This document shows, piece by piece, positions 6,456 through 64,000 of a DNA stretch of 64,000 nucleotides. The position numbers and the translations under genes are program-made. The first letter of the stretch is position 1. Each line of letters opens with the position of its first letter. The notes beneath the pieces are model-generated. The model did no database searches. It saw only the letters and a list, made by a program, of their open reading frames with translations, and was not told the origin of the DNA. Source of the DNA: Patescibacteria group bacterium (GTDB lineage Bacteria; Patescibacteriota; Minisyncoccia; Minisyncoccales; CAZWNE01); contig JBBTTI010000001.1 of the NCBI GenBank assembly GCA_038078735.1, positions 20,830 through 84,829 of the forward strand, given 5' to 3'.

Positions 6456-6476
6456 CTTAGGGACTTAGTCCCTAAG
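6456..6476. repeat. REP-like 21-nt palindrome CTTAGGGACT-T-AGTCCCTAAG (left flank of the truncated RAYT-like gene)
   Basis: Perfect 10-bp arms. A near copy is at 6922-6942 and a compensatory variant lies inside leuS at 46811-46831. Confidence 0.8.
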
Positions 6477-6485
6477 GAGAAATTA

Positions 6486-6926
6486 GTGAGCTTTGTATGT
6501 TATTGTTTCAATCCCAATCATTACCATTTTCTTTTACAGCAAATCTCAGACCGTGGTATAGAAAAATTTATGCACCGTTTAGGGTCGGGATACACAACTT
6601 ATTTTAATAAAAAATATAATCGCAACGGTTCTTTATTCCAGGGAACATTTAAGGCGAATCAGATTGATTCGGATGAATATTTATTATATGTCAGCGCTTA
6701 CGTTAATCTAAATAATAGAATTCACAAAATAGAAAAAGAAGTTTTTGATTCAAGCTGGGGTGAGTATTCTGAGGGTATTAAGAAAAATAGTGGTTTTTGT
6801 GATAAAAATATTATTCTAAATCAATTTGCCAATTTTCAGGAATATAAATCTTTTTCAGAAAACGTTGTGGCGACTGCTAGGGAAAGAAAGGAATTAGAAA
6901 AAATATTAAAAATCGATCTTACTTAG
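6486..6926 (+). CDS. N-terminally truncated IS200-like/RAYT Y1 transposase homologue
   Basis: PNHYHFLL (HUH) and YVSAYVNLN (Tyr motif) align with residues ~85-222 of the 8231-8899 paralogue. The first ~85 aa are absent. GTG start. Confidence 0.6.
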   Translation: MSFVCYCFNPNHYHFLLQQISDRGIEKFMHRLGSGYTTYFNKKYNRNGSLFQGTFKANQIDSDEYLLYVSAYVNLNNRIHKIEKEVFDSSWGEYSEGIKKNSGFCDKNIILNQFANFQEYKSFSENVVATARERKELEKILKIDLT

Positions 6927-6942
6927 GGACTTAGTCCCTTAA
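6922..6942. repeat. REP-like palindrome CTTAGGGACTTAGTCCCTTAA (right flank; overlaps the stop codon)
   Basis: Core AGGGACTTAGTCCCT is identical to 6456-6476. Confidence 0.75.
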
Positions 6943-8920: not shown

Positions 8921-8941
8921 GTTAGACGCTCAGCGTCTAAC
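8921..8941. repeat. REP-like palindrome GTTAGACGCTCAGCGTCTAAC
   Basis: Identical to 8191-8211. Confidence 0.85.
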
Positions 8942-8954
8942 ATTTAAAACCCCG

Positions 8955-28550: not shown

Positions 28551-28593
28551 TAACTATTTTTTAATCACTTAGAAACGGAGTTTCTAAGTGTAT

Positions 28594-34891: not shown

Positions 34892-35571
34892 TTTTCAAAA
34901 AAGAAGAGCGGGGCGAGGCAGATTTGTTATTTACTGTTTACACCAAGGATTTCGGCAAATTGGAAATATTGGGAAAATCCGTCAGAAAGATCGCTTCTAA
35001 GTTAAGACCGTCGGCGGAAGTTTTTTATTTATCGGAAATTGAGTTTATTCAAGGGAAAATTCAGAAAACTTTGACCGATGCCACTTTGGTTGATAAATTT
35101 TCCGGAATTAGGGGAGATTTAAAAAAAATAAGAATTGCTCACAAAATTTCTGAAGTTTTGGATAATTTGATAAAAGGACAGGAACCGGATGAAAAAATCT
35201 GGCGCCTTCTAATTGAAACATTTCAAAAACTAAATGATTTGAAATTACCAGCCCAAGGCTGGTCCGCCTCGGGCGGAGAAATTATTTACTGCTATTTTTA
35301 TTGGAATTTTATTTCCATTTTAGGATACCGGCCGGAATTATATCATTGCGTCCGTTGCCGGAAAAAAATAATAACCGAGAGGAATTATCTCGTCCCTGAA
35401 GAGGGCGGAATAATTTGCGGCAGTTGTAAATCTGAAGGCAGGAACATAAGCCCTGAAGCGATAAAAATTTTAAGGATTATTTTAAAAAGGGATTGGGCCA
35501 CTTTATTTAAATTGAAATTTGAGGCACAATACTTAAAGGAGTTAATATGCGTAAATTATTCATCGTCTTAA
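34861..35571 (+). CDS. recO: DNA repair protein RecO
   Basis: GLIFKKEERGEADLLFTVYTKDFGKLEILGKSVRK and zinc motif CVRC...CGSC. Confidence 0.8.
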   Translation: MFIHYRGRGLIFKKEERGEADLLFTVYTKDFGKLEILGKSVRKIASKLRPSAEVFYLSEIEFIQGKIQKTLTDATLVDKFSGIRGDLKKIRIAHKISEVLDNLIKGQEPDEKIWRLLIETFQKLNDLKLPAQGWSASGGEIIYCYFYWNFISILGYRPELYHCVRCRKKIITERNYLVPEEGGIICGSCKSEGRNISPEAIKILRIILKRDWATLFKLKFEAQYLKELICVNYSSS

Positions 35572-37211
35572 TAATATTAGCGGCAATAGGAGGATTGGTT
35601 GGTTTTTGGAATTATCAAAGGAATACTTATTCTAAAGATGTTTTAAAATTGGAAATTTTAGGGCCAGATCAGGTGATTTTAGGGGAAATTTCAGAATATA
35701 CCGTCAAGTATAAAAATAACGGTAATTTTCGTTTAGATAATCCGGAATTAATTTTTGCGCCACCCGATCACTCGCTTTCGGGCGATCAGGTCGTTGGAAG
35801 GCAAATTTTAGGCAAAGAGAAACTAGGCGAGGCAATTTATCCCGGAGAAGAAAAAGCTTTCACTTTTTCAGTACGGCTATTAGGCAAAGAAGGAGAGGCA
35901 AGGACTGCCAAGGCGACTTTGTCTTATCAGCCGAAGGGATTAAAGGCAAGATATGAATCGTCGACTACTTTTACCTCTAATATTAAATCAGTTCCCTTAA
36001 CCCTAGAGTTTGATTTGCCAAGCAAAGCTGAATCAGCGCAAGATTTTACATTCAGATTGAATTATTTTTCCAATATAAATTCTCTTTTAACGGACTTAAG
36101 GGTCCAATTGGAGTATCCTGTTGATTTTGAGTTCTTGGAATCGTCTCCAAAATCGTTGGATAAAACCGAATGGGATATCCCTGTTTTAAATAAATCGCAA
36201 GGCGGCAGAGTAGAAATTTCCGGCAAAGTTTCCGGAGACGTGGGCTCGGCAAAAATTTTTAAAGCAAAATTAGGCATCTGGAAAAATGGAGAATTTGTCT
36301 TGTTGAAGGAGGCTGAAGGCGGAGTGGAAATTACCAAGGCATCAGTCTTTTTGCGCCAGGAAATTAATAATAATCCTAAATATCCGGCTTCCCCCGGCGA
36401 TTGGCTGCACTATGAAGTTTTTTTCAAAAATATCGGGGATGACGCTTTGACTAATTTATTTATTGTTAATAAGTTAGAGGGCGATGCGTTTGATTTTAAT
36501 ACGATTAAATCTGATTCGGGTATTTTTAAATCCGGAGACAACTCAATTGTTTTTGACTGGAAAAGGGTGGCAAAACTTCAATATTTAGCGCCGACTGAAG
36601 AGGGCAAGGTTGATTTTTGGGTAAGAGTGAAAGACGATTTAGGCAACGTTAAAAATCCGGTTTTAAGAAACAAGGTTTTTGCTTCTCAGGTTGAAGAAGA
36701 ATTTGTCACCAAAATTGGCTCTAAAATGGAAGCGATCCAAAAAGGTTATTTTCAGGATGAGGTTTTTGGCAATTCGGGTCCTCTGCCGCCAAGAGGAGGA
36801 GAAACTACCACTTATACCATACTTTGGCAGGCAAAAAATTATTATTCAGATGTCAGAGATGTAAAAATGAAAGCTACTTTACCCCAAGGAGTGGAATTAA
36901 CCGGGAAAATATTCCCGGAAGAAGAAGCTCAAAAATTTACTTTTGATTCAGAGTCTAGGGAGATTGTTTGGTCTCTGGGAAATTTGGAACGAGGAAAAGG
37001 AGTTTTGAACTCCCCTCCTAATTTTTCTTTTCAAGTTGCTTTTACTCCAACAGTATCTCAAAGAGGCCAGACGCCGAATATCATCGGCCAAGTTCAGATT
37101 ACCGGCGAAGACACTTGGACAGAGTCTACTTTAGAAGCAACAGCGCCCGTTATAAATACCACCTTGCCCGATGATAAGACCATCACCCCGGCGCTTGGAA
37201 TAGTGCAGTAA
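35547..37211 (+). CDS. Membrane-anchored hypothetical protein with repeated beta-rich (DUF11-like) segments
   Basis: N-terminal TM helix, then recurring Y-x-V-x-[FY]-K-N-x-G patterns. Confidence 0.5.
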   Translation: MRKLFIVLIILAAIGGLVGFWNYQRNTYSKDVLKLEILGPDQVILGEISEYTVKYKNNGNFRLDNPELIFAPPDHSLSGDQVVGRQILGKEKLGEAIYPGEEKAFTFSVRLLGKEGEARTAKATLSYQPKGLKARYESSTTFTSNIKSVPLTLEFDLPSKAESAQDFTFRLNYFSNINSLLTDLRVQLEYPVDFEFLESSPKSLDKTEWDIPVLNKSQGGRVEISGKVSGDVGSAKIFKAKLGIWKNGEFVLLKEAEGGVEITKASVFLRQEINNNPKYPASPGDWLHYEVFFKNIGDDALTNLFIVNKLEGDAFDFNTIKSDSGIFKSGDNSIVFDWKRVAKLQYLAPTEEGKVDFWVRVKDDLGNVKNPVLRNKVFASQVEEEFVTKIGSKMEAIQKGYFQDEVFGNSGPLPPRGGETTTYTILWQAKNYYSDVRDVKMKATLPQGVELTGKIFPEEEAQKFTFDSESREIVWSLGNLERGKGVLNSPPNFSFQVAFTPTVSQRGQTPNIIGQVQITGEDTWTESTLEATAPVINTTLPDDKTITPALGIVQ

Positions 37212-37221
37212 ATTTAAAATT

Positions 37222-38499
37222 ATGCAAGATTTAATGGATAAAATTATTAGTTTATGCAAGAGGCGGGGTTTTGTTTTCCCTGGTTCGGAAATCTACGGCG
37301 GATTGTCTAACTCGTGGGATTACGGCCCGTTAGGCACGGAACTTAAAAATAATATCAAGCAGCTTTGGTGGAAAAGATTTGTTCAGAGCCGCGATGATAT
37401 GGTGGGCATAGACTCTTCGCTTATTATGAATCCCAAGGTTTGGGAGGCATCGGGTCATTTGAAAGAGTTTACCGATCCGCTTGTTGAATGTAAAAATTGC
37501 CATAATAGATTTCGCGAAGATTCTTTAGAGGAAACGAAATGTCCAGATTGCGGCAAAAAAGAATTTACTTCTTCAATGCAGTTTAATTTGATGTTTAAGA
37601 CATTTATCGGCCCGGCGGAAGAAAAAAACAATATTGCTTATTTCCGTCCGGAAACTGCCCAAGCAATGTTCGTTGATTTCAAAAATGTTTTAGACACCTC
37701 TAGAAAAACTTTGCCCTTTGGAATTGCTCAAATCGGCAAAGCTTTCCGCAATGAGATTACTCCGGGGAATTTTATTTTTAGAACGCGCGAATTCGAACAA
37801 ATGGAAATAGAGTATTTTATCCGCCAAGAAGATTGGGAAAAATATTTTGAATACTGGAGAAAAGAAATAATAGAATGGATTAAAGATTTGGGAGTTGATA
37901 TTAAAAATATCCATGAAAATGAAATTTCCGATAAGGAACGGGCTCACTACTCTAAAAGAACCATAGACTTTGATTATGATTTTCCTTTTGGTCGGAAAGA
38001 ATTATACGGCTTGGCTTATAGAACCGATTTCGATTTGAAAAACCACTTCAAAGAACCGCCGTATAAAGAGGAGGGCGTCAATGCGTTCTATCCGCACGTC
38101 ATAGAGCCGACATGGGGAGTTGATCGTTCGGTTTTAGTGGCGCTTCTGGAGGCGTATAAAGAAGAAGATAAAAGAATCGTTTTAAAGTTGCCCGTGAAAC
38201 TGGCTCCCTACAAAGCCGCAGTTTTCCCGCTCTTGGCGAATAAACCGGAACTCGTAAAGCTGGCTAAAAAAATTTATGATGATCTGCGGAAAGATTTTAT
38301 GGTGGCTTTTGACGATCGGGGGAATATCGGCAAGCGTTATTATTCGCAAGATGAAATCGGCACGCCGGCCTGCATTACCGTTGACTTTGATAGTTTAGAA
38401 AAAAATGATGTCACTATCCGCGACCGCGACACTATGAAACAAGAAAGAGTTAAGATTAAAGACTTAGCGAATATTCTAAAAGATAAACTAAACCGTTAA
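37222..38499 (+). CDS. glyQS: Glycyl-tRNA synthetase (dimeric class II)
   Basis: RRGFVFPGSEIYGG, FRPETAQAMF, GKAFRNEITP, GVDRSVL. Confidence 0.95.
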   Translation: MQDLMDKIISLCKRRGFVFPGSEIYGGLSNSWDYGPLGTELKNNIKQLWWKRFVQSRDDMVGIDSSLIMNPKVWEASGHLKEFTDPLVECKNCHNRFREDSLEETKCPDCGKKEFTSSMQFNLMFKTFIGPAEEKNNIAYFRPETAQAMFVDFKNVLDTSRKTLPFGIAQIGKAFRNEITPGNFIFRTREFEQMEIEYFIRQEDWEKYFEYWRKEIIEWIKDLGVDIKNIHENEISDKERAHYSKRTIDFDYDFPFGRKELYGLAYRTDFDLKNHFKEPPYKEEGVNAFYPHVIEPTWGVDRSVLVALLEAYKEEDKRIVLKLPVKLAPYKAAVFPLLANKPELVKLAKKIYDDLRKDFMVAFDDRGNIGKRYYSQDEIGTPACITVDFDSLEKNDVTIRDRDTMKQERVKIKDLANILKDKLNR

Positions 38500-38605
38500 G
38501 CTGGACAGAAAAGATATTATGTCTACGAAAAATCGCCAAGCGAGCGGTTTTTATTTTGAAAAACTGAATTTTCTGATATAATTAAGTAATGATTAGTCGG
38601 GTAGT

Positions 38606-38626
38606 GTTAGACGCCAGACGTCTAAC
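38606..38626. repeat. REP-like palindrome GTTAGACG-CCAGA-CGTCTAAC
   Basis: Same arms as the palindromes flanking the RAYT gene at 8231-8899. Confidence 0.75.
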
Positions 38627-38648
38627 ATCCATAAGAAACTTATTGAAT

Positions 38649-38780
38649 ATGAGAAAGAATAATAAAAAAATTGTATATTTGTCTTTTGAGCGTTATTTAG
38701 CCCAACAGATGAAAGATAAGGTATTTAGAGAGGCATACGAGAAAGAAGGTCAGTATCTTAAGATTGAATTTGTTAAATAA
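38649..38780 (+). CDS. Possible 43-aa antitoxin-like remnant
   Basis: MRKNNKKIVYLSFERYLAQQMKDKVFREAYEKE...; weak, by-eye resemblance only. Confidence 0.25.
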   Translation: MRKNNKKIVYLSFERYLAQQMKDKVFREAYEKEGQYLKIEFVK

Positions 38781-38781
38781 T

Positions 38782-40062
38782 ATGTTTCGCAAAACTACGT
38801 TAAAAAATGGGTTGAGGATAATTACCGTGCCGCAGGATAATACGGAAACGGTGACGGTTTTAGTGTTGGTCGGGACCGGTTCAAAATATGAAACCAAAGA
38901 TATCTCCGGCATTTCTCATTTTTTGGAGCATTTATTTTTTAAAGGAACAAAAGAAAAACCGACGGCCTTAGCTGTAATTGAACCCTTAGATAAAGTCGGT
39001 GGCGTTTACAACGCTTTCACTTCCCAAGAATGCACAGGCTTTTACGCTAAAGTTGAGGCGTCGCATTTCGAATTAGCCTTGGAATGGGTTTCGGACATTC
39101 TTTTAAACTCCACTTTTCCGGCCAAGGAAATTGAAAAAGAAAAAGGGGTGATTATTGAAGAAATAAATATGTATTATGACGATCCAAGGAGATATGTCCA
39201 AACTTTATGGACGAAACTTTTATACGGCGATCAGCCGGCCGGCTGGGATGTTGCCGGGACGAAAGAAACGGTCTCTAAAATTAACCGGCAAAATCTCGTA
39301 GATTATGTCAATAATCATTACACTTCTTCCAGCGTTATCGTTTGTATTGCCGGAAAAATTAACGAATCTGAAGGACTGGCCAAAGTAGAAAAATATTTTT
39401 CGAAAATAAAAATTAAACAGACAGAGGAAAAATTAAAAGTTATTGAGAAACAGGATAAGCCGGGATGCTTAATTCATTATAAGAAAACCGACCAGACTCA
39501 TTTTTGTTTGGGAGCTCGGGGATATAATATTTTTCATCCTCAAAAATACGCTCAAGAATTATTGGCAACAATTTTGGGAGCCGGAGGGATGATGAGCAAT
39601 CGGCTTTTTACCGAGGTAAGGGAAAAATTAGGATTGGCTTATTATATTTCAACGGAAACTGACACCAGCACTGACACGGGGTTTTTAGTCACCAATGCCG
39701 GTGTGGACAATACAAGGGTGAAAAAAAGCATCCAAACTATTTTAAAAGAGTATAAAAAAATTTCTCAAATTAAAGTTTCCGCTCAAGAGCTTAAAAAAGC
39801 CAAAGATAATATCAAAGGGAAAACAGCTATTTATTTAGAGCCGTCTGACTCCCAGGCCTCTTTTTTCGGATTTCAGGAACTTTTAGAAAAGAAAATTTTA
39901 ACCCCAAATGATTTTTTCCGGGAAATTGATAAAGTTTCCCAAAGTGATATCCTGAAAGTAGCTAAAGATATTTTTCAGCCGGGAAAATTAAATTTGGCTT
40001 TAATCGGCCCGTTTAAAAACGATGAACCAAACATTAGACATATCTTGGCAAACAATTTTTAA
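38782..40062 (+). CDS. M16-family (pitrilysin-like) zinc peptidase
   Basis: HxxEH motif GISHFLEHLFFKGT. Start moved to MFRKTTLKNGLRI. Confidence 0.85.
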   Translation: MFRKTTLKNGLRIITVPQDNTETVTVLVLVGTGSKYETKDISGISHFLEHLFFKGTKEKPTALAVIEPLDKVGGVYNAFTSQECTGFYAKVEASHFELALEWVSDILLNSTFPAKEIEKEKGVIIEEINMYYDDPRRYVQTLWTKLLYGDQPAGWDVAGTKETVSKINRQNLVDYVNNHYTSSSVIVCIAGKINESEGLAKVEKYFSKIKIKQTEEKLKVIEKQDKPGCLIHYKKTDQTHFCLGARGYNIFHPQKYAQELLATILGAGGMMSNRLFTEVREKLGLAYYISTETDTSTDTGFLVTNAGVDNTRVKKSIQTILKEYKKISQIKVSAQELKKAKDNIKGKTAIYLEPSDSQASFFGFQELLEKKILTPNDFFREIDKVSQSDILKVAKDIFQPGKLNLALIGPFKNDEPNIRHILANNF

Positions 40063-41035
40063 AGTTGTTTTAATCGGATTTTCCCTTTATCTTGTATTTT
40101 TACTAAGGGATATTTTGGTTTTAGTGATATTTGCCTTAATTATTTCCGTTTTGTTTAATCCCGCCATTGAATTTTTGCAAAGATACAAAATTCCCAGAGT
40201 TTTAGCTACTATCCTAATTTATACCGGAGTGTTCGGTATTCTAGGTTTTTTTGTTTATTTAACTATTCCAATTTTTGTCAATGAACTTAAGCAATTCTCT
40301 CAGTTTTTCCCTCAGTACTTTGAAAAATTAGCTCCGCCCTTAAAGGGATTGGGGCTTGAAACGTTTGATAGTTTTGACAGTTTTGTTGACGGATTGGGAG
40401 GGTTGGCGATAAAAGCATCTTCTAATATATTTTCCGCAGTTTCAATTATTTTTGGCGGTATTTTTTCCACCATCACTATTTTTACTATTGCAATTTTTCT
40501 TTCCTTTGAACAAAATGCTATTGAGAAAACAGTCGGTATTTTTTCTCCTAAAAAATACGAAGAGTATGTCTTAATCCTTTGGAAAAAATCTCAAGCAAAG
40601 GTTTCCGGTTGGTTTGGCTCAAAAATCCTTACCGGTTTGTTTGTGGGACTGCTTACTTTCGCTGCCTGTAAAATTTTAGCTGTGAAATATGCCATTTCTT
40701 TTGCTTTTCTCGCCGGAATTTTAAATATTATTCCGATCATAGGTCCGATTGTTACGGGAATTATTATATTTGTTTTTACAGGATTAGATTCATGGACAAA
40801 AGCTGCTTTCGTTCTGATTATTTTTTTTCTTATACAGCAAATCGAGGGCAATATTATAACTCCGATTTTAACCAGGAAATTTGTCGGAATACCGGCAGTG
40901 CTGGTGTTCATCGCTTTACTGATCGGCAGCCAGCTCTGGGGAATTTTAGGGGCAATTCTAGTTATTCCCTTAGCTGGCGTAATCTTTGAATTTTCCAGAG
41001 ATTTTTTAAAAAAGAGAAAAGAATCCATTGAATAA
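40022..41035 (+). CDS. AI-2E family transporter (PerM/UPF0118)
   Basis: 8 TM helices; FFLIQQIEGNIITP motif. Confidence 0.75.
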   Translation: MNQTLDISWQTIFKVVLIGFSLYLVFLLRDILVLVIFALIISVLFNPAIEFLQRYKIPRVLATILIYTGVFGILGFFVYLTIPIFVNELKQFSQFFPQYFEKLAPPLKGLGLETFDSFDSFVDGLGGLAIKASSNIFSAVSIIFGGIFSTITIFTIAIFLSFEQNAIEKTVGIFSPKKYEEYVLILWKKSQAKVSGWFGSKILTGLFVGLLTFAACKILAVKYAISFAFLAGILNIIPIIGPIVTGIIIFVFTGLDSWTKAAFVLIIFFLIQQIEGNIITPILTRKFVGIPAVLVFIALLIGSQLWGILGAILVIPLAGVIFEFSRDFLKKRKESIE

Positions 41036-41678
41036 AATGGCTGTTTTATATATTGTTGCCACTCCTATCGGCAATCTTCAAGATATAACTTTTAGAGCCG
41101 TTGAAACCCTTAAAAGGGTTGATTTAATTTTGTGTGAAGATACGAGAGTAACTCAAAAATTACTCAGCCATTACGAAATTAAAACACCAACATTGAGCTA
41201 CCATCAGCACAGCAAATTAAATAAAATAGAATATATATTAGATCTTTTAAAACAAGGCAAAAACTTGGCCCTGGTTTCCGATGCCGGCACTCCGGGCATT
41301 TCCGACCCTGGTAATAAACTTATTGCCGAATTTACACAGGTGCAACCTGTGCCTGGGCCATCTGCTTTAACTGCGGTAGCAAGTATTGCTGGTTTTCCGA
41401 TGGATAGATTTTTATTTCTGGGATTTCCGCCGATAAAGAATAAAAGGAAAAAATTTTTTGAAGAGGTCGCCACTTCAAGATATCCGGTAATTTTTTACGA
41501 ATCACCCTATCGTATTATTAAAACTTTAAATGAGATTGAACCCCTGAGAGATATTGTGGTTGGTCGCGAATTGACTAAGAAATTTGAAACAGTTTATCGC
41601 GGTAAAGCTAAAGACGTTTTAAACCAGTTGACAAAAGAGGAAATTAGAGGAGAATTTGTGGTAATAATAAACAGATGA
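41028..41678 (+). CDS. rsmI: 16S rRNA (cytidine1402-2'-O)-methyltransferase
   Basis: LYIVATPIGNLQDITFRA...ILCEDTR...SDAGTPGISDPG. Confidence 0.9.
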   Translation: MNKMAVLYIVATPIGNLQDITFRAVETLKRVDLILCEDTRVTQKLLSHYEIKTPTLSYHQHSKLNKIEYILDLLKQGKNLALVSDAGTPGISDPGNKLIAEFTQVQPVPGPSALTAVASIAGFPMDRFLFLGFPPIKNKRKKFFEEVATSRYPVIFYESPYRIIKTLNEIEPLRDIVVGRELTKKFETVYRGKAKDVLNQLTKEEIRGEFVVIINR

Positions 41679-43069
41679 AAAATAAATTTTATATCACAAC
41701 CAGCATTGCTTATACAAATGCGTCTCCGCATATCGGCTTTGCCTTAGAAGCGATCCAGGCGGATGTTTTAGCCCGTTATCATCGAAATTTAAGTGAGGAT
41801 GTTTTCTTTTTGACCGGGACCGATGAGCATGGCGCGAAAATCGCCAAGGCGGCAGAAAAATCAGGTAAAAACCCGCAAGAATTCACCGATGAAATTTCTG
41901 CCAAATTTCATGGATTAACTAAGGGTTTAAATTTATCTAATGACGATTTTATCAGAACCACCGATCAGGCGCGGCATTGGCCGACAGTAAAAGATATTTG
42001 GTTGAAACTGAAAAAAAATAACGATATTTATAAAAAAAATTACAAAGGCCTTTATTGTCTAGGCTGTGAGGCTTTTATCACTCAAAAAGATTTAATTGAC
42101 GGAAAATGTAAGATCCATCTTAAAGAACCGGAAGCCATTGGCGAGGAAAATTATTTTTTCAGGCTTTCGAAATATTCAAACAAAATAGAAGAGTTGATTA
42201 AAAAAGATGAGGTAAAAATAATTCCCCAAGAAAAGAAAAACGAAATGTTAAACTTTGTCAGGCAGGGATTAGAGGACATCAGTTTTTCAAGGCCGAGTAA
42301 AGATTTGAAATGGGGCATACCTGTGCCAGATGACGATTCTCAAACAATCTATGTTTGGGCAGACGCTCTTGTGAATTACCTTCTCCCGAAGAAATATTGG
42401 CCGGCCGATATCCATTGTCTGGGAAAAGATATCTTAAGATTTCACGCCACAATTTGGCTGGGAATGCTTTTATCTTCAAAATTGCCCTTGCCAAAATCAA
42501 TTTTTGTCCACGGCTTTATAACTTCTAACGGCCAAAAAATGTCGAAATCATTAGGGAACGTAGTCGATCCGTTTGAATTAATTAGAAAATACGGCGCAGA
42601 CGCAGTTCGTTATTTTCTTTTGCGGGAAATTCCAGCAACCGAAGACGGAGACTTTACTATTGAAAAATTTGAGCAAAGATACAATGCTGATTTAGCCAGT
42701 GGGCTGGGAAATTTGGTGGCGAGAGTAATAACATTGGCCGAAAAATTCAAAATTCAAATCTCAAAATCCAAAATAAATCCAAAATTCGAAATTCAAATAA
42801 ATAAAACTCGAGAGAAATATAAAAAGGCGCTTGAGGAATTTAAATTTAACGAAGCTTTAATTGCGATTTGGGAGTTAATCAGTTTTTGCGACAAAATTAT
42901 AAACGAAGAAAAACCTTGGGAGGGAGGAAAAGAAAAAATTATAGATGATTTACAAATAACAATCATCGAAATTGCAAATTTAATAAAGCCATTTATGCCC
43001 GAAACCTCGGGAAAAATAATAGAGCAGATAAAAAATAGGGTTAGTCAGTCATTATTCCCGCGAATTTAA
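41675..43069 (+). CDS. metG: Methionyl-tRNA synthetase (short form)
   Basis: YTNASPHIGF (HIGH-like), KMSKSLGN. Confidence 0.95.
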   Translation: MKNKFYITTSIAYTNASPHIGFALEAIQADVLARYHRNLSEDVFFLTGTDEHGAKIAKAAEKSGKNPQEFTDEISAKFHGLTKGLNLSNDDFIRTTDQARHWPTVKDIWLKLKKNNDIYKKNYKGLYCLGCEAFITQKDLIDGKCKIHLKEPEAIGEENYFFRLSKYSNKIEELIKKDEVKIIPQEKKNEMLNFVRQGLEDISFSRPSKDLKWGIPVPDDDSQTIYVWADALVNYLLPKKYWPADIHCLGKDILRFHATIWLGMLLSSKLPLPKSIFVHGFITSNGQKMSKSLGNVVDPFELIRKYGADAVRYFLLREIPATEDGDFTIEKFEQRYNADLASGLGNLVARVITLAEKFKIQISKSKINPKFEIQINKTREKYKKALEEFKFNEALIAIWELISFCDKIINEEKPWEGGKEKIIDDLQITIIEIANLIKPFMPETSGKIIEQIKNRVSQSLFPRI

Positions 43070-43072
43070 AAT

Positions 43073-44002
43073 ATGATTTCTGTTTCTCAAATATTTTGGG
43101 TTTTATTTGTAATTTTTATCTTAGGAGCCGTTATTTTTGACCTTTATTTACAAGGAAGAAGGAAAAAAGAACTTTCCATGAGGGAGGCGGGTTTTTGGAC
43201 ATTAGGATGGATAGGTTTGGCGTTATTTTTCAATCTGCTAATTTATTTTTTCTTGGGGCATGAAAAAGCTTTGGAATTTTTCGCCGCTTATTTGTTGGAA
43301 AAATCGCTTAGTTTAGACAACCTTTTTGTTTTTTTGGTAATTTTTTCTTATTTTGATCTTTCCGTAATTGCCCAGCAGAAAATCTTAAAACTGGGAATTT
43401 TGGGCGCTTTTTTAATGAGAGCCGTTTTCATTTTCGGGGGCATTTGGCTCTTACAGAGATTTGATTTTCTTTTTTATATTTTTGGCGCTTTTTTGATTTT
43501 TACAGCGCTTAAGCTTCTTCTTCAAAAAGGGGAAAAAATAAACCCCCAGAAAAGCTTATTTTTGAAGATTGTAAGAAAATTTATTCCCATGGCAGACGAT
43601 TGCAAGGAAAATAAATTTTGTATAAAAAAAGAAGGAAAGCTCCATTTTACCCCTCTTTTTATTGCCTTGATTTTGATTGAAGGATCGGATTTGGTTTTTG
43701 CTTTAGATTCCGTGCCCGCAGTTCTAGCCATCACGCAAGATCCGTTTTTGGCCTATACTTCCAATGCCTTTGCCATACTCGGCTTAAGGGCTCTTTATTT
43801 TTTCTTAATCACTTTTTTGCCAAAATTCATTTACTTGGAAAAAGCCATAATAGCTTTATTGGCGTTTGTCGGCTTGAAAATGATTTTAAACCAGTTTTAT
43901 CATATTCCCCTGGCTTTTTCGATCGGCTTTATTTTATCGGTTTTGATAATTTCCATTTTATTGTCTTATAAAAAATTAAAAGAAAATGAAAGTGCTAATT
44001 GA
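43073..44002 (+). CDS. TerC-family integral membrane protein
   Basis: LLEKSLSLDNLFVF and EGSDLVFALDSVPA motifs. Confidence 0.8.
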   Translation: MISVSQIFWVLFVIFILGAVIFDLYLQGRRKKELSMREAGFWTLGWIGLALFFNLLIYFFLGHEKALEFFAAYLLEKSLSLDNLFVFLVIFSYFDLSVIAQQKILKLGILGAFLMRAVFIFGGIWLLQRFDFLFYIFGAFLIFTALKLLLQKGEKINPQKSLFLKIVRKFIPMADDCKENKFCIKKEGKLHFTPLFIALILIEGSDLVFALDSVPAVLAITQDPFLAYTSNAFAILGLRALYFFLITFLPKFIYLEKAIIALLAFVGLKMILNQFYHIPLAFSIGFILSVLIISILLSYKKLKENESAN

Positions 44003-44825
44003 TACGCACGCCCACGTGAATTTCAATGCTTTTAAGGATGATGCCGACGAAGTGATTGGCCGGTCTTTGGCTGGAGGAGTTCAAATGATAAATGTCGGTT
44101 CGCAGTATTCTACCTCAAAGAGAGCGGTAGAAATGGCTGAGAAATATGAAAGCGGAGTTTATGCGGCCATTGGGCTTCATCCGATTCATTTAGCCGATGG
44201 CATTTTTAAAACAAAATTAGACGAAGAAGAAGTAATTATTCCGACCAAAAATGAAGAATTTGATTCTGAAAAATATAAAAAACTCGCCAAATCTTCCAAA
44301 GTTGTTGCCATCGGTGAAATCGGCTTAGATTATTATTACCGGCCAAAAACTAAAACAAAACTCGAGGAATTCAAAGAATTGCAGAGAACGGTTCTCTGTA
44401 AACAGCTGGATTTGGCAAAAGAATTAAATTTGCCGGTTATTTTTCACTGCCGTTCAGCGCATAACGACTTAATAAACGAGATCCGATCTCGCGACGAAAT
44501 CGGATCTCCTAAAATACGCGGGGTAATCCATTGTTTCACAGGAACTTGGGAGGAGGCGCAGAAATATTTGGAAATGGGTTTTTATTTAGGGTTTAATGGA
44601 ATAATCTTTAAGCTTGATTTAAACGACGTGATTAAAAAAACTCCCCTAGAAAGAATTGTTTTAGAAACCGATTGTCCGTATTTAACTCCGAAGCCCATGG
44701 AAGGCCGCAACGAGCCTTTATACGTGAAATATGTCGCTGAAAAAATTTCGGAACTAAAAAATGTAAGCATTGAAGAAATATCTCAAGCTACCACTCAAAA
44801 TGCCAGAAAACTCTTTAGAATTTAA
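43986..44825 (+). CDS. tatD: TatD-family metal-dependent hydrolase
   Basis: LIDTHAHVNF, GEIGLDYYY, IFHCRSA, ETDCPYL. Confidence 0.9.
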   Translation: MKVLIDTHAHVNFNAFKDDADEVIGRSLAGGVQMINVGSQYSTSKRAVEMAEKYESGVYAAIGLHPIHLADGIFKTKLDEEEVIIPTKNEEFDSEKYKKLAKSSKVVAIGEIGLDYYYRPKTKTKLEEFKELQRTVLCKQLDLAKELNLPVIFHCRSAHNDLINEIRSRDEIGSPKIRGVIHCFTGTWEEAQKYLEMGFYLGFNGIIFKLDLNDVIKKTPLERIVLETDCPYLTPKPMEGRNEPLYVKYVAEKISELKNVSIEEISQATTQNARKLFRI

Positions 44826-44850
44826 TATCACGAGAACGGTTCTCGTGATA
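44826..44850. repeat. Perfect palindrome TATCACGAGAAC-G-GTTCTCGTGATA immediately after the tatD stop
   Basis: 12-bp arms and no T-run, so REP-like rather than a classical terminator. The GAGAAC..GTTCTC core recurs at 22713-22733. Confidence 0.6.
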
Positions 44851-44906
44851 AATTAGACAAAAACCAGCTTGAGAGAGCTGATTTTTTATGTTAAATTAAG
44901 TATATT

Positions 44907-47279
44907 ATGGAACAATACAACCCGCAGAGAATTGAAGCGAAATGGCAAAAATTTTGGGAGAAGAAAGGGTTTTATAAAACTGAAGATTCGAGTAAAAAAC
45001 CTAAAAAATATATTTTAGTTGAATTTCCTTATCCTTCTGGCGACGGCCTTCATGTCGGCCACGTCAGAAGTTATTCTGCTTTAGACGCGGTCTGCCGAAA
45101 AAAAAGAATGGAAGGGTTTAATGTTTTGTTCCCGATTGGCTGGGATGCTTTTGGTTTGCCGACAGAAAATTATGCCATAAAAAATGGCATCCATCCGAGC
45201 GCGGCCACGGGAAAAAATATAGCTAATTTTAAAAGACAGCTTAAGAGTTTGGGTCTGTCATTTGATTGGTCAAGGGAGATAAATACAACTGATCCCGAAT
45301 ATTATAAATGGACTCAATGGATCTTTTTAAAACTTTTTGAGAAAGACATGGCTTATCAAGCGGAAATTCCGGTTAACTGGTGCCCTTCTTGCAAAATTGG
45401 TTTGGCTAATGAAGAAGTAGTTGATGGAGCTTGCGAAAGATGTCATACGCCAGTCGGAGAGAAAACATTAAAGCAATGGATGATACGAATTACCAAGTAT
45501 GCCGACAGATTGATAGACGATTTGAAGAATGTTGATTTCCCCGAGCGCGTTAAATCCCAAGAAATAAATTGGATAGGAAAATCAGAAGGCGCAGAAATTA
45601 AATTTAAAATTGTCATAGGTGACACCTATGACAATTTACCAGTTTTTACAACAAGGCCAGATACGTTATTCGGCTGTACTTATTTAGTTTTATCGCCGGA
45701 ACATTCGTTAATCGAAAATTTAAAATTAAAAATTGAAAATTGGGACGAAGTCCAAAAATATCGCAAAGAAGCGAAAAAGAAAAGCGAGCTGGAAAGAACG
45801 GAATTAACTAAAGATAAAACCGGTGTGGAATTAAAGGGAATAAAAGCGATAAATCCGGCAAACAATGAAGAAATTCCTGTTTTTGTGGCAGATTATGTTT
45901 TATCTTCTTATGGAACCGGCGCCATTATGGCGGTTCCGGCTCATGATCAGCGCGATTTTGATTTTGCCAAAAAATATAATCTGCCGATTAAAATTGTTGT
46001 TGACGATAAGGAACGCTTGGTTGATTCTGGAAAATTTAACGGGATGGAGTCAGATGTTGCTAAATGGGAAATTACTAAGTTTGTTGGCGGGAAGAAAACA
46101 ATAAATTACAAATTAAGGGATTGGGTTTTTTCAAGGCAACATTATTGGGGAGAGCCCATTCCAATTATTCATTGCTTGAAATGCGGCCAAGTGCCGGTGC
46201 CGGAAAAAGATTTGCCGGTAGAGCTTCCTTACGTTGAAAAATACCAGCCAACAGGAACCGGCGAATCGCCCTTGGCAGTTATCACGGATTGGGTTAATGT
46301 TAAATGTCCGAAATGCGGCGGCCAGGCTAAGCGGGAAACTGACACTATGCCTAATTGGGCCGGATCTAACTGGTATTATTTAAGATATCTAGATCCGAAA
46401 AATAATAAAGCCTTGGCTGATGTTAAAAAAATAAAATACTGGATGCCTCTTGATTGGTATAACGGCGGTATGGAACATACCACTTTGCATCTTTTATATT
46501 CCAGATTTGTTTACAAATTTTTATATGACATCGGGATAGTGCCGTCTTCCGAGCCTTACCAAAAAAGAACTTCCCATGGCATGGTTTTAGCCGAAGACAA
46601 CAGGAAAATGTCCAAGTCTTTTGGCAATGTCATTAACCCGGACGATATTGTCAAAAAATTTGGCGCTGATTCATTACGTCTTTATGAAATGTTTATGGGG
46701 CCATTTGATCAGGCAATTGCTTGGAGCACGAACGGCTTAAGAGGTTGTTACAGATTTTTAAATAAAGTTTGGCAATTACAATTTAAAGTTAAAAGAGACT
46801 TAGTCTCCCACTTAGAGACTAAGTCTCTAAGTCGCTTGTTACATCAAACGATTAAAAAGGTGACGGAGGATATAGAAAGTTTAAATTATAATACGGCAAT
46901 TTCAGCCTTGATGATTTTAGTTAATCAATCAGACCAAATAACAAAAAATAGTTTTGAAATTTTATTGAAATTGCTGGCGCCATTTGCGCCGCATATTGCT
47001 GAGGAATTATGGAGCAATTTAGGCAATAAAAATTCTATTTTTGAAGAATCTTGGCCGAAATACGACGAAAAATTAATGCAGGAAGATAAAATCAACTTGA
47101 TTATTCAGATTAACGGCAAATTCCGAGATAAGATTGAGGTCGAGGCTGAAATCTCCGAAGGCGAAGTTAAAAAATTGACTTTAAATCGGGAAAAAGTTAA
47201 ACAATGGGTAGCAGGTAAAGAGATTAAAAAAATAATTTTTATTAAAAATAAACTAATCAATATTGTATGTGCGGAATAG
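44907..47279 (+). CDS. leuS: Leucyl-tRNA synthetase
   Basis: PYPSGDGLHVGHV (HIGH), KMSKSFGN, CP1 editing TTRPDTLFG. Confidence 0.95.
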   Translation: MEQYNPQRIEAKWQKFWEKKGFYKTEDSSKKPKKYILVEFPYPSGDGLHVGHVRSYSALDAVCRKKRMEGFNVLFPIGWDAFGLPTENYAIKNGIHPSAATGKNIANFKRQLKSLGLSFDWSREINTTDPEYYKWTQWIFLKLFEKDMAYQAEIPVNWCPSCKIGLANEEVVDGACERCHTPVGEKTLKQWMIRITKYADRLIDDLKNVDFPERVKSQEINWIGKSEGAEIKFKIVIGDTYDNLPVFTTRPDTLFGCTYLVLSPEHSLIENLKLKIENWDEVQKYRKEAKKKSELERTELTKDKTGVELKGIKAINPANNEEIPVFVADYVLSSYGTGAIMAVPAHDQRDFDFAKKYNLPIKIVVDDKERLVDSGKFNGMESDVAKWEITKFVGGKKTINYKLRDWVFSRQHYWGEPIPIIHCLKCGQVPVPEKDLPVELPYVEKYQPTGTGESPLAVITDWVNVKCPKCGGQAKRETDTMPNWAGSNWYYLRYLDPKNNKALADVKKIKYWMPLDWYNGGMEHTTLHLLYSRFVYKFLYDIGIVPSSEPYQKRTSHGMVLAEDNRKMSKSFGNVINPDDIVKKFGADSLRLYEMFMGPFDQAIAWSTNGLRGCYRFLNKVWQLQFKVKRDLVSHLETKSLSRLLHQTIKKVTEDIESLNYNTAISALMILVNQSDQITKNSFEILLKLLAPFAPHIAEELWSNLGNKNSIFEESWPKYDEKLMQEDKINLIIQINGKFRDKIEVEAEISEGEVKKLTLNREKVKQWVAGKEIKKIIFIKNKLINIVCAE
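46795..46831. repeat. Two tandem REP-like palindromes inside leuS (GAGACTTAGTCTC; CTTAGAGACT-A-AGTCTCTAAG)
   Basis: The second differs from the RAYT-flanking 6456-6476 palindrome only by a compensatory G/C to A/T arm change and the central base. Confidence 0.8.
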
Positions 47280-49093
47280 TCGGTTATATAGGTAAAAAAA
47301 ATGCCGTTCCAATTTTAATGGAAGGGCTTAAAAGAGAAAGCTACCGAGGATATGATTCCAGCGGTATTGTTGTTTTATGCGGCAATGAAATTACCAGCGT
47401 TAAGGCGGTGGGCAAATTAGAAGAATTAGAAACAAAAATTATTCCCTGCGATATAAATGGAAATGTCGGTTTGGGCCATGTCCGCTGGGCAACTCACGGC
47501 GAGGTGACCGAAGAAAATGCCCATCCGCATCACGACTGCAAAAACAATATTTGGCTGGTTCATAACGGGATTATTGAAAATTATAAAGAATTGAAAAAAA
47601 AGTTGGAAGAAAAAGGCCATAAATTTGTTTCGCAAACAGATACCGAAGTTTTACCTCACTTGGTTGAAAATTTTTTCCAAGGGAATCTGGAAGATGCGGT
47701 TCGCAAAGCTTTGAAATTGATTAAAGGCACTTACGGTATTGCCGTAATAGCCAAAGAAGATCCCGGAAAAATTGTCGTCGCCAGAATGGCCAGTCCTTTA
47801 GTCATCTCCGTTAACGGCGCAGGCGGTTTTGTCGCTTCAGACTCTGCGGCTATTCTTTCTCATTCAAATAAAGTGGTTTTTCTGGAGGATGGAGAAATTG
47901 CCGTGATTACTCCTGAAGAATTTACAATTACCGACTTGATGAATCATCAAAAAGCCAAAGAGCCCATAGAACTAGATTGGACGATTGAAGAAGCCCAAAA
48001 AGGCGGCTATCCCCATTTTATGCTCAAAGAAATTATGGAGCAGCCGGAGAGTATAGAAAATTCTTTGCGCGGCAGATTGATTTTAGAAGATGGCAAGGCA
48101 AGGTTGGGAGGATTAGCTTCTGTCCAAGATAAATTAAGAGATATTGAAAGGCTGAACATTATTGCTTGCGGCACTGCTTATTATGCCGGGCTGGTGGGAG
48201 AATATATGCTTGAAGAATATGCCGGTGTGCCGGTTGAAGTAGACTTAGCTTCAGAATATCGTTATCGGAAGCCTATCATTGATAAGAAAACAGCGGTTTT
48301 AGCTATTTCTCAATCCGGTGAAACCGCTGACACTTTAGCCGCCCTAAAAGAAGCGAAAGAAAAAGGAGCAATGATCTTAGGGTTAGTTAATACCATTGGT
48401 TCCAGTGTCACCAGAGAAACAGAGGCCGGAGTTTATAATCACGCCGGACCGGAACTTGGCGTTGCTTCTACCAAAGCCTTTACTTCGCAATTGGCAATTT
48501 TAGCTCTTTTGACTTTGTATTTGGGCAGACAGCGTCAGCTTTCTTTAGTTATGGGGCAAAGAATTGCTAAAGAGCTAGCCTTAATTCCTGAATTAGTCGG
48601 GAAAATATTGAAAGACAGCTCTAAGATTGAGGCAGTGGCTAAAAAATATAAAAATTGCGGAAACTTTTTATTCTTAGGCAGAAAATATAACTTCCCTATC
48701 GCTTTAGAAGGAGCCTTAAAACTAAAAGAAATATCTTATGTCCATGCCGAGGGTTACGGCGCCGGGGAAATGAAGCACGGCCCAATTGCTTTGATTGATG
48801 AAAATTTTCCGACAGTGACTATTTGTCCGTCAGATTCGGTCTATGAAAAAATGGTTTCTAATATTGAAGAAATAAAAGCCAGAAAAGGCAAGGTTATTGC
48901 TATAGCTACCGAAGGCAATGAGGAAATAAAAAACCTGGCAGACGATGTAATTTATATCCCCAAAACTCTGGAAATGCTGACGCCGATTTTGTCTATTATT
49001 CCTTTGCAGTTATTTGCCTATTATATGGGGACGCTAAGAGAGTGCGACGTGGATCGTCCCCGCAACCTGGCAAAATCCGTCACCGTAGAGTAA
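47267..49093 (+). CDS. glmS: Glutamine--fructose-6-phosphate aminotransferase
   Basis: MCGIVGYIG N-terminus, two SIS domains, C-terminal ...KSVTVE. Confidence 0.95.
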   Translation: MCGIVGYIGKKNAVPILMEGLKRESYRGYDSSGIVVLCGNEITSVKAVGKLEELETKIIPCDINGNVGLGHVRWATHGEVTEENAHPHHDCKNNIWLVHNGIIENYKELKKKLEEKGHKFVSQTDTEVLPHLVENFFQGNLEDAVRKALKLIKGTYGIAVIAKEDPGKIVVARMASPLVISVNGAGGFVASDSAAILSHSNKVVFLEDGEIAVITPEEFTITDLMNHQKAKEPIELDWTIEEAQKGGYPHFMLKEIMEQPESIENSLRGRLILEDGKARLGGLASVQDKLRDIERLNIIACGTAYYAGLVGEYMLEEYAGVPVEVDLASEYRYRKPIIDKKTAVLAISQSGETADTLAALKEAKEKGAMILGLVNTIGSSVTRETEAGVYNHAGPELGVASTKAFTSQLAILALLTLYLGRQRQLSLVMGQRIAKELALIPELVGKILKDSSKIEAVAKKYKNCGNFLFLGRKYNFPIALEGALKLKEISYVHAEGYGAGEMKHGPIALIDENFPTVTICPSDSVYEKMVSNIEEIKARKGKVIAIATEGNEEIKNLADDVIYIPKTLEMLTPILSIIPLQLFAYYMGTLRECDVDRPRNLAKSVTVE

Positions 49094-49115
49094 AATAATT
49101 TATATATGGAGTATA

Positions 49116-49138
49116 ATCCCGACATCGGGTGTCGGGAT
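49116..49138 (+). terminator. Hairpin ATCCCGACA-TCGGG-TGTCGGGAT downstream of glmS
   Basis: 9-bp perfect stem; weak T-tail. Confidence 0.5.
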
Positions 49139-49142
49139 AAAT

Positions 49143-49171
49143 TTGACAGAACAAATAAAGCGTGCTAAATA
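49143..49171 (+). promoter_or_regulatory. Sigma70-like promoter (TTGACA-17 nt-TAAATA)
   Basis: Followed by a leader hairpin CGCATAGTA..TCTGCTGTGCG and RBS AAGGAGGAAC. Confidence 0.5.
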
Positions 49172-49231
49172 AAGTTCACGCATAGTAAATTTTTCTGCTG
49201 TGCGAGAACCTTAAATAAGGAGGAACAGTCC

Positions 49232-49843
49232 ATGAAGAATGGAACAGTCCACCACAAGGCAACCGATGGGCAGCGAAGGGATATCGCTGCCACTATAGTT
49301 GCTGCCATACCACACGATCTCTCATTTAAAGAGGCTCAGGAAATAATCGGTGGTAAAGGTCCTTTTATAGCCAACATCCGGGAGGTATTCACGAGTCGAC
49401 GATTAACTATTGTACCGGCTGGTGGTGTGTGGTTTAATCTCGAGGTTATTGATGTCGATCCTATGACGGTTGTTGCTCTTGCTAACTACGAGGTTAAAGA
49501 TTGGAAATATCTCGGTCCTCAATATACGGGCAAGCGGGTACGCAGGGTGAAGCTCATTCATTTGGGTCATAATAATAATCTTAATGAGGCAAGAGCAAGA
49601 GCAGATGGGATGGGCTACCGACTTGTTGGTGGCCAAATGATGGAACCTTTTAGAAATAAGTTTCCTAAATATAATGATACCGGGCCCATAGTTTTTGGAG
49701 GTGATGAGTGGTTAAATCCACACGGTGAGACACGTGTCGTGGCCTACCTCCACGATATTAGTAATTATGAGTTGCTGAGAGCATTTCGCAAATCTAATTC
49801 TCTTTTCGACAAAGTCTGCCGATGGATGGTTACCTTAAAATAA
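49232..49843 (+). CDS. Distant paralogue of the DGR-target family, without a Trp-rich VR-like tail
   Basis: Strong RBS. GC-richer island. NEARARADG..., PIVFGGDEWLNPHGETRVVAYL is colinear with IVFTGTIWRIPDGGLSVACLL and IFFDGTVLRDPDGSRCVLYL. Confidence 0.55.
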   Translation: MKNGTVHHKATDGQRRDIAATIVAAIPHDLSFKEAQEIIGGKGPFIANIREVFTSRRLTIVPAGGVWFNLEVIDVDPMTVVALANYEVKDWKYLGPQYTGKRVRRVKLIHLGHNNNLNEARARADGMGYRLVGGQMMEPFRNKFPKYNDTGPIVFGGDEWLNPHGETRVVAYLHDISNYELLRAFRKSNSLFDKVCRWMVTLK

Positions 49844-62802: not shown

Positions 62803-63210
62803 TTACCCGCCCAATTTTAGGCGGGTTTGTTTTACAAGCTGGCCCTGCCAGCCGCCGAGCATTTTCCCTAGTTCGTCTATTTTTAAGGATAGAGCTATGT
62901 ATTTTTTATCATCCAGGGATTTTGTTTCCCAGCACATCATTAAGAATATTTTAAGAGTGTCTATTTTTCTTCGTGCTAAACGGACGTAAGGCAATTTTTC
63001 TTCTTTGTTAAGAAATCCGGCGGTAGTTATTGCTTCTATGGCGTTAACAAAAAGATTGTCGATTTTCTGCCCGAGCGAATACCGGTGCGTTTTTGGTATA
63101 ATCGGATAATATTGGTACCAAAGAAGATAAGCGCTTTTCGCCTTCTGTAAAATTGGCAAAAGGGCGGGGCGGGGGGGGTTAGAAGTATGAATAAAATTAA
63201 GCTGGTTCAT
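62803..63210 (-). CDS. avd: Avd-like accessory variability determinant (four-helix-bundle family)
   Basis: YYPIIPKTHRYSLGQKIDNLFVNAIEAI...KIDTLKIFLMMCWE...IDELGKMLGGWQ pattern. Lies on the strand opposite to the TR and RT. Confidence 0.75.
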   Translation of the reverse strand: MNQLNFIHTSNPPRPALLPILQKAKSAYLLWYQYYPIIPKTHRYSLGQKIDNLFVNAIEAITTAGFLNKEEKLPYVRLARRKIDTLKIFLMMCWETKSLDDKKYIALSLKIDELGKMLGGWQGQLVKQTRLKLGG

Positions 63211-64000
63211 AATTATGATTATATCATTTCCATTGAAAACCTGCTTTTGGCGTGGAAGGAATTTTTAAAAGGGAAAAGGCATCGCAAAGATATGCAGGAG
63301 TTTGAATTCCGGCTGATGAATAATATCATTTCTCTGCACGATGATCTAGCCGCTAAAACCTATATTCATGGCGGTTATCATGCCTTCAAAATTTATGACC
63401 CGAAACTGCGGGACATCCACAAAGCAAGCGTACGGGACAGATTGTTGCATCATGCCGTCTACAGGGTTTTATATCCATTCTTTGACAGAATTTTTATATC
63501 AGATTCTTTTTCCTGCCGGCTCGGCAAGGGCACTCATAAGGCAATTAATAGATTTAGAGATTTTAGCCGTAAAGTATCTAAAAATAATACGAAAACAGCG
63601 TGGGTTTTGAAGTGCGACATTAGAAAGTTTTTTGCCTCGATAGACCAGAAGATACTGATTGATATTATAAAAGATTTCATACCAGACAAAGATATTGTTC
63701 GGCTCATTTCTGAAATTATCGGCAGTTTTTATTCAACCAAGGAAGGCAAGGGTCTGCCCCTTGGCAATCTTACTTCCCAGCTGCTGGTCAATATTTATAT
63801 GAATAAATTTGACCAATTTGTAAAACACAAACTCAAAGCAGAATATTATATCCGCTATGCGGACGATTTTGTCATTTTATCGAAAAATAAGGAATGGCTC
63901 AGATTGGCGTTGAAGGAAATGGGTAATTTTCTGCAAGATAAGCTAGACTTGCAATTGCACCCGAATAAAGTATCAATAGAAACCCTTGCTTCCGGAGTAG
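63188..64000 (+). CDS. DGR-type reverse transcriptase (3' end beyond the window)
   Basis: Manual translation: RDIHKASVRDRLLHHA, SFSCRLGKGTHKA, KCDIRKFFASIDQ, GLPLGNLTSQLLVNIYM, YIRYADDFVIL. Not in the ORF track because there is no stop before the window edge. Confidence 0.9.

Follow-up and report, generated by a model that had tools for sequence, protein, structure and literature searches.

A palindromic doublet in frame in a patescibacterial leuS gene as a probable passenger of a RAYT-associated repeat family

How does a pair of DNA palindromes come to lie in frame within a housekeeping gene, and is it kept there for the sake of its DNA or RNA structure? This question is raised by leuS, the leucyl-tRNA synthetase (LeuRS) gene on the plus strand (44907..47279) of a 64,000-nucleotide (nt) stretch of contig JBBTTI010000001.1 from a Patescibacteria group bacterium, a stretch that we call the window and whose coordinates are used throughout unless a locus label (L0xx) is given. 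The open reading frame (ORF; 790 aa) of the gene matches Pfam tRNA-synt_1, the LeuRS editing domain and, from residue 641, Anticodon_1, and it contains a palindromic doublet of 39 nt (46794..46832, plus strand) that starts and ends on codon boundaries, its 13 codons (RDLVSHLETKSLS) supplying residues 630-642. An original prediction had grouped these palindromes with others that flank a gene for a RAYT (a tyrosine transposase associated with repetitive extragenic palindromic, or REP, sequences) and had read a paired base change between them as a sign of selection on DNA or RNA structure. Our findings support the first idea more than the second: probably, though with some reserve, the leuS element is a non-autonomous passenger REP doublet of a RAYT-associated family, which became fixed in a permissive loop since, with this length and in this frame, the gene stays open.

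The leuS element is made of two unequal copies. Copy 1 (46795..46807, plus strand) is the 13-nt core palindrome GAGACT-T-AGTCTC (GAGACTTAGTCTC) with a T loop and without outer arms, and copy 2 (46810..46832, plus strand) is a full 23-nt palindrome, ACTTAGAGACT-A-AGTCTCTAAGT, which has an A loop and 11-bp arms and includes CTTAGAGACTAAGTCTCTAAG at 46811-46831; the peptide encoded across the palindromes is KRDLVSHLETKSLSRL. The T-loop copy precedes the A-loop copy, inverted and at a spacing of 20 nt, and a scan for perfect hairpins shows that the two pair with each other, 46794-46807 with 46815-46828 (plus strand), through 14-bp arms around a 7-nt loop (CCACTTA). Folding predictions place the energy minimum at this long hairpin for RNA (-23.4 kcal/mol, z -5.4) and for DNA (-13.3 kcal/mol, z -5.5) alike. 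With 23 nt and 11-bp arms, copy 2 corresponds to a REP, i.e. a palindromic repeat of ~20-40 nt able to form a stem-loop, and the doublet as a whole, two inverted REPs with a short spacer and a joint long hairpin, has the make-up of a REPIN (a REP doublet forming a hairpin), as do a doublet in pth and one internal to the RAYT gene of L011, both described below. On each strand the leuS doublet is free of stops in one of the three frames. A known RNA family was considered and rejected, as Rfam at gathering thresholds gives only tmRNA and one tRNA in the window and none at the palindromes. Because the leuS region is letter-identical in independent assemblies from three other sequencing runs, the palindromes are not an assembly error, and no polymorphism is seen among these three assemblies of the same strain over the covered regions (34907-49660). 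The in-frame palindrome pair is thus a real feature of leuS and lies far beyond chance.

Palindromes of the same kind recur within the window. A degenerate 21-nt family pattern has four matches where shuffles of the window give 0.00, and a 13-nt core pattern has five against 0.07 expected. Apart from leuS, there is a GGGACT-type palindrome (CTTAGGGACTTAGTCCCTAAG; 6456..6476, plus strand) at the broken 5' end of a RAYT remnant, another GGGACT-type palindrome with an imperfect outer arm in the 3' flank of that remnant (6922..6942, plus strand), and an intergenic variant, CACTTAGAAAC-GGA-GTTTCTAAGTG (28566..28590, plus strand), which retains the outer ACTTAG/CTAAGT and has an inner stem altered on both arms. 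The family consensus is ACTTAGnGACTnAGTCnCTAAGT, usually flanked by TA.../...TA; its conserved ends are ACTTAG/CTAAGT rather than the GTAG/CGTC tag, GTAG occurring only sporadically (e.g. in L017). Over the ~75 kb of this genome that we read, the copies comprise two associated with a RAYT, the leuS doublet, the pth doublet and one intergenic variant. Judged by these pattern matches, the leuS palindromes belong to the ACTTAG...CTAAGT family and hence to the family found at the RAYT-like ORF 6486-6926, as had been proposed, and the three palindromes on which that proposal was built do lie at 46795-46807 and 46811-46831, inside leuS, and at 6456-6476.

Comparing the second leuS copy to the one at 6456 reveals a paired G>A/C>T change together with a different loop base (A in leuS, T at 6456), the latter implying that the two copies are in opposite orientation. 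Is the paired change compensatory? At the variable pair, A-T in leuS and G-C at 6456, 22 out of 25 independent exact-pattern matches are Watson-Crick (A-T 9, G-C 5, C-G 5, T-A 3), compared with 25% by chance. Among 31 distinct 23-mers, both sides have changed at 6 of the 11 stem pairs and 95% of cells are paired, a percentage that is inflated (unlike the diversity of pair types) since only 23-mers with 9 or more of the 11 positions paired were chosen and most columns are fixed by the collection scans; their covariation score was reached by none of 500 shuffles. Taken over the aligned copies, the family stem truly covaries and the hairpin does matter to the family, and the same data support a propagation that would depend on the hairpin. 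For leuS itself the answer differs. Its 23-mer, ACTTAGAGACT-A-AGTCTCTAAGT, is identical over 23/23 nt to copies in L010 and L017, the AGAGACT type is the cognate repeat of the RAYTs in L008 and L017, and both leuS copies are in the A-T state. Since other genomes have this variant as an established cognate type of their RAYTs, and since both leuS copies share it, inheritance from a sister lineage of AGAGACT-type repeats is most likely, rather than evolution or selection in leuS, and two independent double substitutions within the gene seem much less likely; on the same grounds we judge compensatory evolution in situ to be unlikely. Such an inherited change would inform on how the family propagates and not on selection on leuS DNA or RNA, so the compensatory argument holds for the family stem, while the selection that had been read into the leuS copy finds no support.

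Which enzyme would such a family belong to? When GTDB representative genomes, a collection that does not include the genome studied here, and JGI metagenomes were scanned for CTTAGNGACTNAGTCNCTAAG, 9 and 13 loci were recovered, respectively, and seven of the nine genome loci carry Patescibacteria names. A cognate palindrome variant stands on both sides of full-length RAYT genes in L008, L011, L016 and L017, where the genes code for ~220 aa, and likewise in L038, L039 and L040, additional clade members fetched as DNA, each with its own stem variant on both flanks. The motifs NH(Y/F)H and SAY are invariant in the RAYT alignment and the proteins match Pfam Y1_Tnp, as expected of HUH/Y1 transposases. 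Their best-scoring model is NCBIfam REP_Tyr_transpos, yet with 20-43 bits they stay far under its cut-off of 80 and therefore represent a distant RAYT clade. A search with the L008 RAYT protein gave 2,886 relatives at E<=1e-10. The few of these with a source name come from Patescibacteria, and the source label of some reads "REP element-mobilizing transposase RayT". On this comparative evidence the palindrome family is associated with one RAYT clade that is widespread in Patescibacteria. Within the window, only a 5'-truncated RAYT-like gene (6486..6926, plus strand) is bounded by family copies (6456, 6922). It keeps the HUH (NHYHF) and Tyr (SAYVNLN) motifs and lacks the first ~75-80 residues, its ORF matching Y1_Tnp only from profile position 44 on; homology to RAYTs runs upstream of the ORF as far as 6441, and the product is 47% identical to full-length RAYTs of the family loci.

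Two other RAYT-like genes lie close by, so that three occur within ~10 kb. The second (8231-8899, minus strand; 222 aa) is full-length and flanked at 8188-8214 and 8919-8943 by the palindrome TGTTAGACGC-TCA-GCGTCTAACA, a third copy of which is found at 38605-38627. The third (240 aa) extends across the window start (1-279; L030:3142-3979) and is flanked by ATACAGGGG-TTGCA-CCCCTGTAT, the upstream palindrome being extended to 27-bp arms.

Most genes of the family's RAYT clade carry yet a third copy of their own palindrome, in frame and at about residue 60 (57-63). At the DNA level, such internal hairpins are confirmed at L011:678-711, L016:1228-1250, L038:10181-10201, L039:10171-10193 and L040:9300-9324; in L008 the copy is decayed, and it is missing from the RAYT of L017 and from the second RAYT of the window (8231-8899). 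The RAYT gene that straddles the window start, which is of a different family, has an internal hairpin as well (L030:3414-3434). Among 120 RAYT homologs, 75 have a palindrome-encodable 7-mer at the internal site (e.g. LGSSAPK, LRSSASK, LRNPVSK, LGHRMSK), following the pattern L-[RG]-x-x-x'-[SP]-K in which x and x' are reverse-complement codon partners. We found no description of an in-frame internal palindrome in RAYT genes in the literature that we searched. The copy at 6456-6476 equals this internal hairpin of full-length RAYT genes, so the view of it as a simple RAYT flank needs revision: the family does flank RAYTs, whereas this copy is gene-internal and appears as a flank since the RAYT of the window is truncated at its 5' end. 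The remnant (6441-6926) begins exactly at the hairpin and retains the C-terminal part only, and two other remnants (L007:3064-3263, L024:7299-7498) consist of just the N-terminal 61-64 residues and end at it. With three remnants broken at the same feature, the internal hairpin looks like a recurrent breakpoint for deletion or recombination.

In-frame copies are not confined to leuS and RAYT genes. On the same contig, ~3.8 kb past the window end, pth holds a doublet of the AGAAGCT variant (TACTTAGAAGCTTAGCTTCTCGCTTAGAAGCTAAGCTTCTAAGTA; L031:18291-18335) that spans 45 nt, has 20-bp arms and is in frame with the peptide LLRSLASKREAKLLS. It repeats the order (T loop, then A loop) and the 20-nt spacing of the leuS doublet, differs by two further stem pairs altered on both arms and is, again, stop-free in one of three frames per strand. 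Elsewhere, argS of a Nomurabacteria genome (L012) has an in-frame copy (YLETKSLSG) directly before the anticodon-binding domain, ybeY of a Moranbacteria genome (L006/L013) has another (SLSDLVAKS), and a 358-aa ORF in L014 has one with a single mismatched pair. Even a single copy has only one stop-free frame in either orientation, reading L-[RG]-D-L-V-x-K with the T loop and L-[EG]-T-K-S-x with the A loop. Palindromic repeats in frame in coding genes, as known for the Rickettsia palindromic elements (RPEs), thus occur here in leuS, pth, argS, ybeY and the RAYT genes, and on these alignments in-frame copies of the family recur in housekeeping genes.

Why leuS could accommodate the doublet becomes clearer from the protein. 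The element was thought to sit in a variable linker before the anticodon-binding domain, and so it does: between RFLxKVWxL and LxHxTIKK the linker measures from ~12 to >40 residues among 120 LeuRS relatives, and Anticodon_1 starts at residue 641. An AlphaFold2 model (mean pLDDT 85.5) has a helix at 608-630, a loop at 631-638 within the block where local confidence is lowest (pLDDT 62) and a further helix at 639-657, so that the 13 residues encoded by the doublet would make up the loop together with the adjoining ends of both helices. As modelled, the doublet sits in a hypervariable helix-loop-helix connector. None of the 120 relatives has the RDLVS or LETKS peptides, and the closest one, at only 71% identity, has no hairpin with a stem of at least 9 bp anywhere in its leuS; a peptide conserved in relatives without the palindrome, which would have spoken for constraint on the protein, was therefore not encountered. 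What does not hold is the idea of a plain insertion of 12-16 aa. The LeuRS linker is just 2-4 residues longer than in its nearest relatives, with SLSRL aligning to their ELE[KR]L, and the 15-residue pth element accounts for a net +6 residues against M. tuberculosis Pth. We reject simple insertion since these gains are too small and removing the element would, going by the AlphaFold2 model, leave no connector. Because the gain is smaller than the element and the connector is placed within it, we infer that the doublet replaced an earlier loop sequence rather than purely adding to it, either by insertion and subsequent loss of adjacent codons or in one event of repeat-templated repair.

The same spot holds short tandem repeats in two other Patescibacteria relatives, one with the DNA repeat AATTTTCAATTTTCAA (L027:4780-4910, encoding NFQFS...) and the other with AAATCCAAAATCC (L028:4900-5040, encoding KSKIQNP...). 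The LeuRS linker appears to collect repeats in general.

How, then, might the doublet have entered leuS? RAYTs belong to the HUH/Y1 enzymes, whose substrates are hairpins of single-stranded DNA. By analogy to characterised RAYT and IS200/IS605 enzymes, leuS may have received a family copy through single-strand transposition that depends on a RAYT, or else through repeat-templated repair, with the copy taking the place of the earlier loop. It would have persisted owing to a length divisible by three, a position in the only stop-free frame and a linker that accepts nearly any sequence. Both the perfect hairpin and the A-T pair would then mirror propagation within the family, where only copies able to form hairpins may be recognised and copied, with the AGAGACT sub-lineage probably inherited as such, and the doublet would have no role in LeuRS function or leuS expression.

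Several observations sit uneasily with this passenger scenario and should be set against it. There is no more than a handful of copies in 75 kb, and in L038-L040 copies are likewise few and mostly RAYT-adjacent, which is unlike classical high-copy REP/REPIN populations. The ~75 kb read of this genome contain no intact RAYT that would be cognate to the AGAGACT or the AGAAGCT variant, and the sole RAYT of the ACTTAG type is a remnant. Cut-and-paste does not fit the small net gains (+2 to +4 aa in leuS, where the element encodes 13 aa, and +6 in pth, where it encodes 15) unless older sequence was lost. A near relative with an empty site was not found, the nearest LeuRS being 71% identical, and no transposition event was seen, so that we infer the insertion of the doublet, its boundaries and its age. 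Finally, perfect 14-bp and 11-bp hairpins in a weakly constrained linker could mean that they are maintained locally.

This last point leads to the explanation closest to the original prediction, namely that the leuS hairpin is kept for a local function, be it as an mRNA or DNA structure that slows translation where the catalytic and anticodon-binding domains meet, as one that modulates mRNA stability or as a binding site for a RAYT-like protein, with the paired change as local compensatory evolution. Perfect complementarity and a strong fold (z about -5.4) are what one would expect in that case, and the family copy that argS of another genome has in its corresponding linker, ahead of the anticodon-binding domain, may point in the same direction; moreover, the in-frame hairpin conserved across the RAYT clade demonstrates that hairpins of this family can be maintained in coding sequence. 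Yet a function in leuS is difficult to reconcile with an element present in 0/119 LeuRS relatives, the closest included, and with further host genes and sites (pth, ybeY, the 358-aa ORF in L014) that are unrelated to each other. The A-T pair is a pre-existing family variant and not specific to leuS, and copies in coding sequence do decay, as seen in L014 and within the L008 RAYT gene. A terminator is ruled out, as no U-run follows the hairpin. To our minds, local maintenance is therefore an unlikely explanation.

Very unlikely, too, is an origin without any transposase, in which replication or repair symmetrised near-palindromes in place by template switching within a hairpin and paired changes arose automatically, without selection. 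Such a process would suit net length gains below the size of the element and, above all, the general wealth of palindromes: the 50.8 kb of coding sequence in the window contain 10 perfect hairpins with stems of at least 10 bp against a mean of 0.67 (maximum 3 in 100 shuffles) in codon-shuffled controls, including one on the conserved ArgRS motif YARIHSILA and a 31-nt perfect leuS palindrome that is the sole copy in the window. It cannot, however, account for the 23/23-nt identity between the leuS palindrome and the RAYT-cognate repeat of other genomes, nor for the architecture and 20-nt spacing common to the leuS and pth doublets. Symmetrisation may instead be a secondary process that keeps inserted copies perfect or adds to the general palindrome excess. 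That palindromes are common in this genome might also invite the view that the leuS pair is a coincidence of chance or composition, or an assembly artefact; with 0.00 pattern matches expected in window shuffles, an identical sequence in independent assemblies and 22/25 Watson-Crick matches from public collections, most of them in Patescibacteria and several adjoining RAYT genes, the probability of this is next to nil. What remains best supported is the passenger doublet of a RAYT-associated family.

An extension of the passenger scenario concerns the RAYT genes themselves, where the internal cognate hairpin could be an integral and conserved part, its codon pairs covarying across hundreds of homologs, that acts in cis, either in autoregulation or in self-cleavage and recombination. 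The remnants broken at the hairpin would be products of this activity, and a repeat born in a coding frame would be pre-adapted to translation, hence its spread into linkers of leuS, argS, pth and ybeY. We put this forward tentatively and consider it rather doubtful as it stands; if true, linker copies could stay RAYT targets and become hot spots for rearrangement or for innovation of protein loops.

Among the other palindromes of the window, the 31-nt one in leuS, AAATTGTCATAGGTG-A-CACCTATGACAATTT (45607-45637; 15-bp arms), encodes KIVIGDTYDNL, modelled by AlphaFold2 as a beta-hairpin; the variable loop in which it lies exceeds that of relatives by 2 aa, and no further copies of the palindrome were found in the window. 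The argS palindrome (30370-30394; 25 nt, 11-bp arms) covers the conserved motif rather than a variable loop and is, for this reason, not an insertion. A third palindrome family with a GAGAAC-n-GTTCTC core and covarying outer stems occurs at 15232, 22715, 23492, 44384, 44832 and 59049, with copies inside rtcA (GERFSV), tatD (QRTVLC) and tsaD (RERVSV) as well as between genes, those at 23492 and 59049 being identical over 23 nt. At the window end (62803-64000, continuing as L031:13322-14713), a bAvd-like gene adjoins a reverse transcriptase gene (RVT_1), the signature of a diversity-generating retroelement.

If the passenger reading is right, selfish repeats of the REP/RAYT type operate in the tiny and gene-dense genomes of Patescibacteria, where intergenic space is scarce and repeat copies would end up in length-tolerant loops of essential genes. 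This would provide a concrete source for the lineage-specific loop insertions often seen in Patescibacteria proteins and calls for caution in annotation and alignment-based phylogeny. In addition, individual RAYTs can be paired with naturally covarying stems of the family (G-C, A-T, T-A, C-G and other stem exchanges), a series that may be used to decipher how these enzymes read the hairpin.

How do these findings compare with known systems? REP-RAYT systems were reportedly treated by Nunvar in 2010. Like the REP/REPIN-RAYT systems described by Bertels & Rainey (2011, PMC3116915) and Ton-Hoang/Messing (2012, PMC3479197), the family studied here has short palindromes on both flanks of a single HUH/Y1 transposase gene, stems that differ between lineages with the hairpin preserved, and inverted doublets that fold into a longer hairpin. 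It departs from them in its host phylum (a literature search on RAYT, REP or REPIN in Patescibacteria or the candidate phyla radiation found no relevant paper), in having ACTTAG/CTAAGT ends and no GTAG/CGTC tag, in its low copy number in the DNA seen, in RAYTs that reach 20-43 bits against the REP_Tyr_transpos cut-off of 80 and in the third, in-frame palindrome that most of these RAYTs carry. The TnpA enzymes of IS200/IS605 'peel and paste' elements are of the same superfamily (Pfam Y1_Tnp) and recognition of a DNA hairpin is presumed to be shared; in our case, however, identical short palindromes rather than distinct left-end and right-end structures stand on both sides of the gene, and the dispersed copies, whose mobility is putative, carry no gene.

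RPEs are longer, at roughly 100-150 bp, and to our knowledge they are restricted to Rickettsia, unrelated in sequence and without an associated transposase. They resemble the present element in being palindromic repeats in frame in housekeeping genes, where they add a surface peptide to proteins that presumably remain functional, while our 39-nt element is tied to a RAYT clade; as host phylum and element length differ, we claim no more than an analogy. In-frame RPEs (Ogata et al. 2000) are cited in the study by Di Nocera et al. (2013, PMC3733652), which reports intragenic REPs, more than half of them dimers that encode 20-30 residues, with tRNA synthetase genes among their hosts. Our genic copies are likewise in frame, with dimers in leuS and pth, and the leuS doublet adds, in this sense, a new case from a phylum that has received little study to the known tendency of such repeats to settle inside genes.

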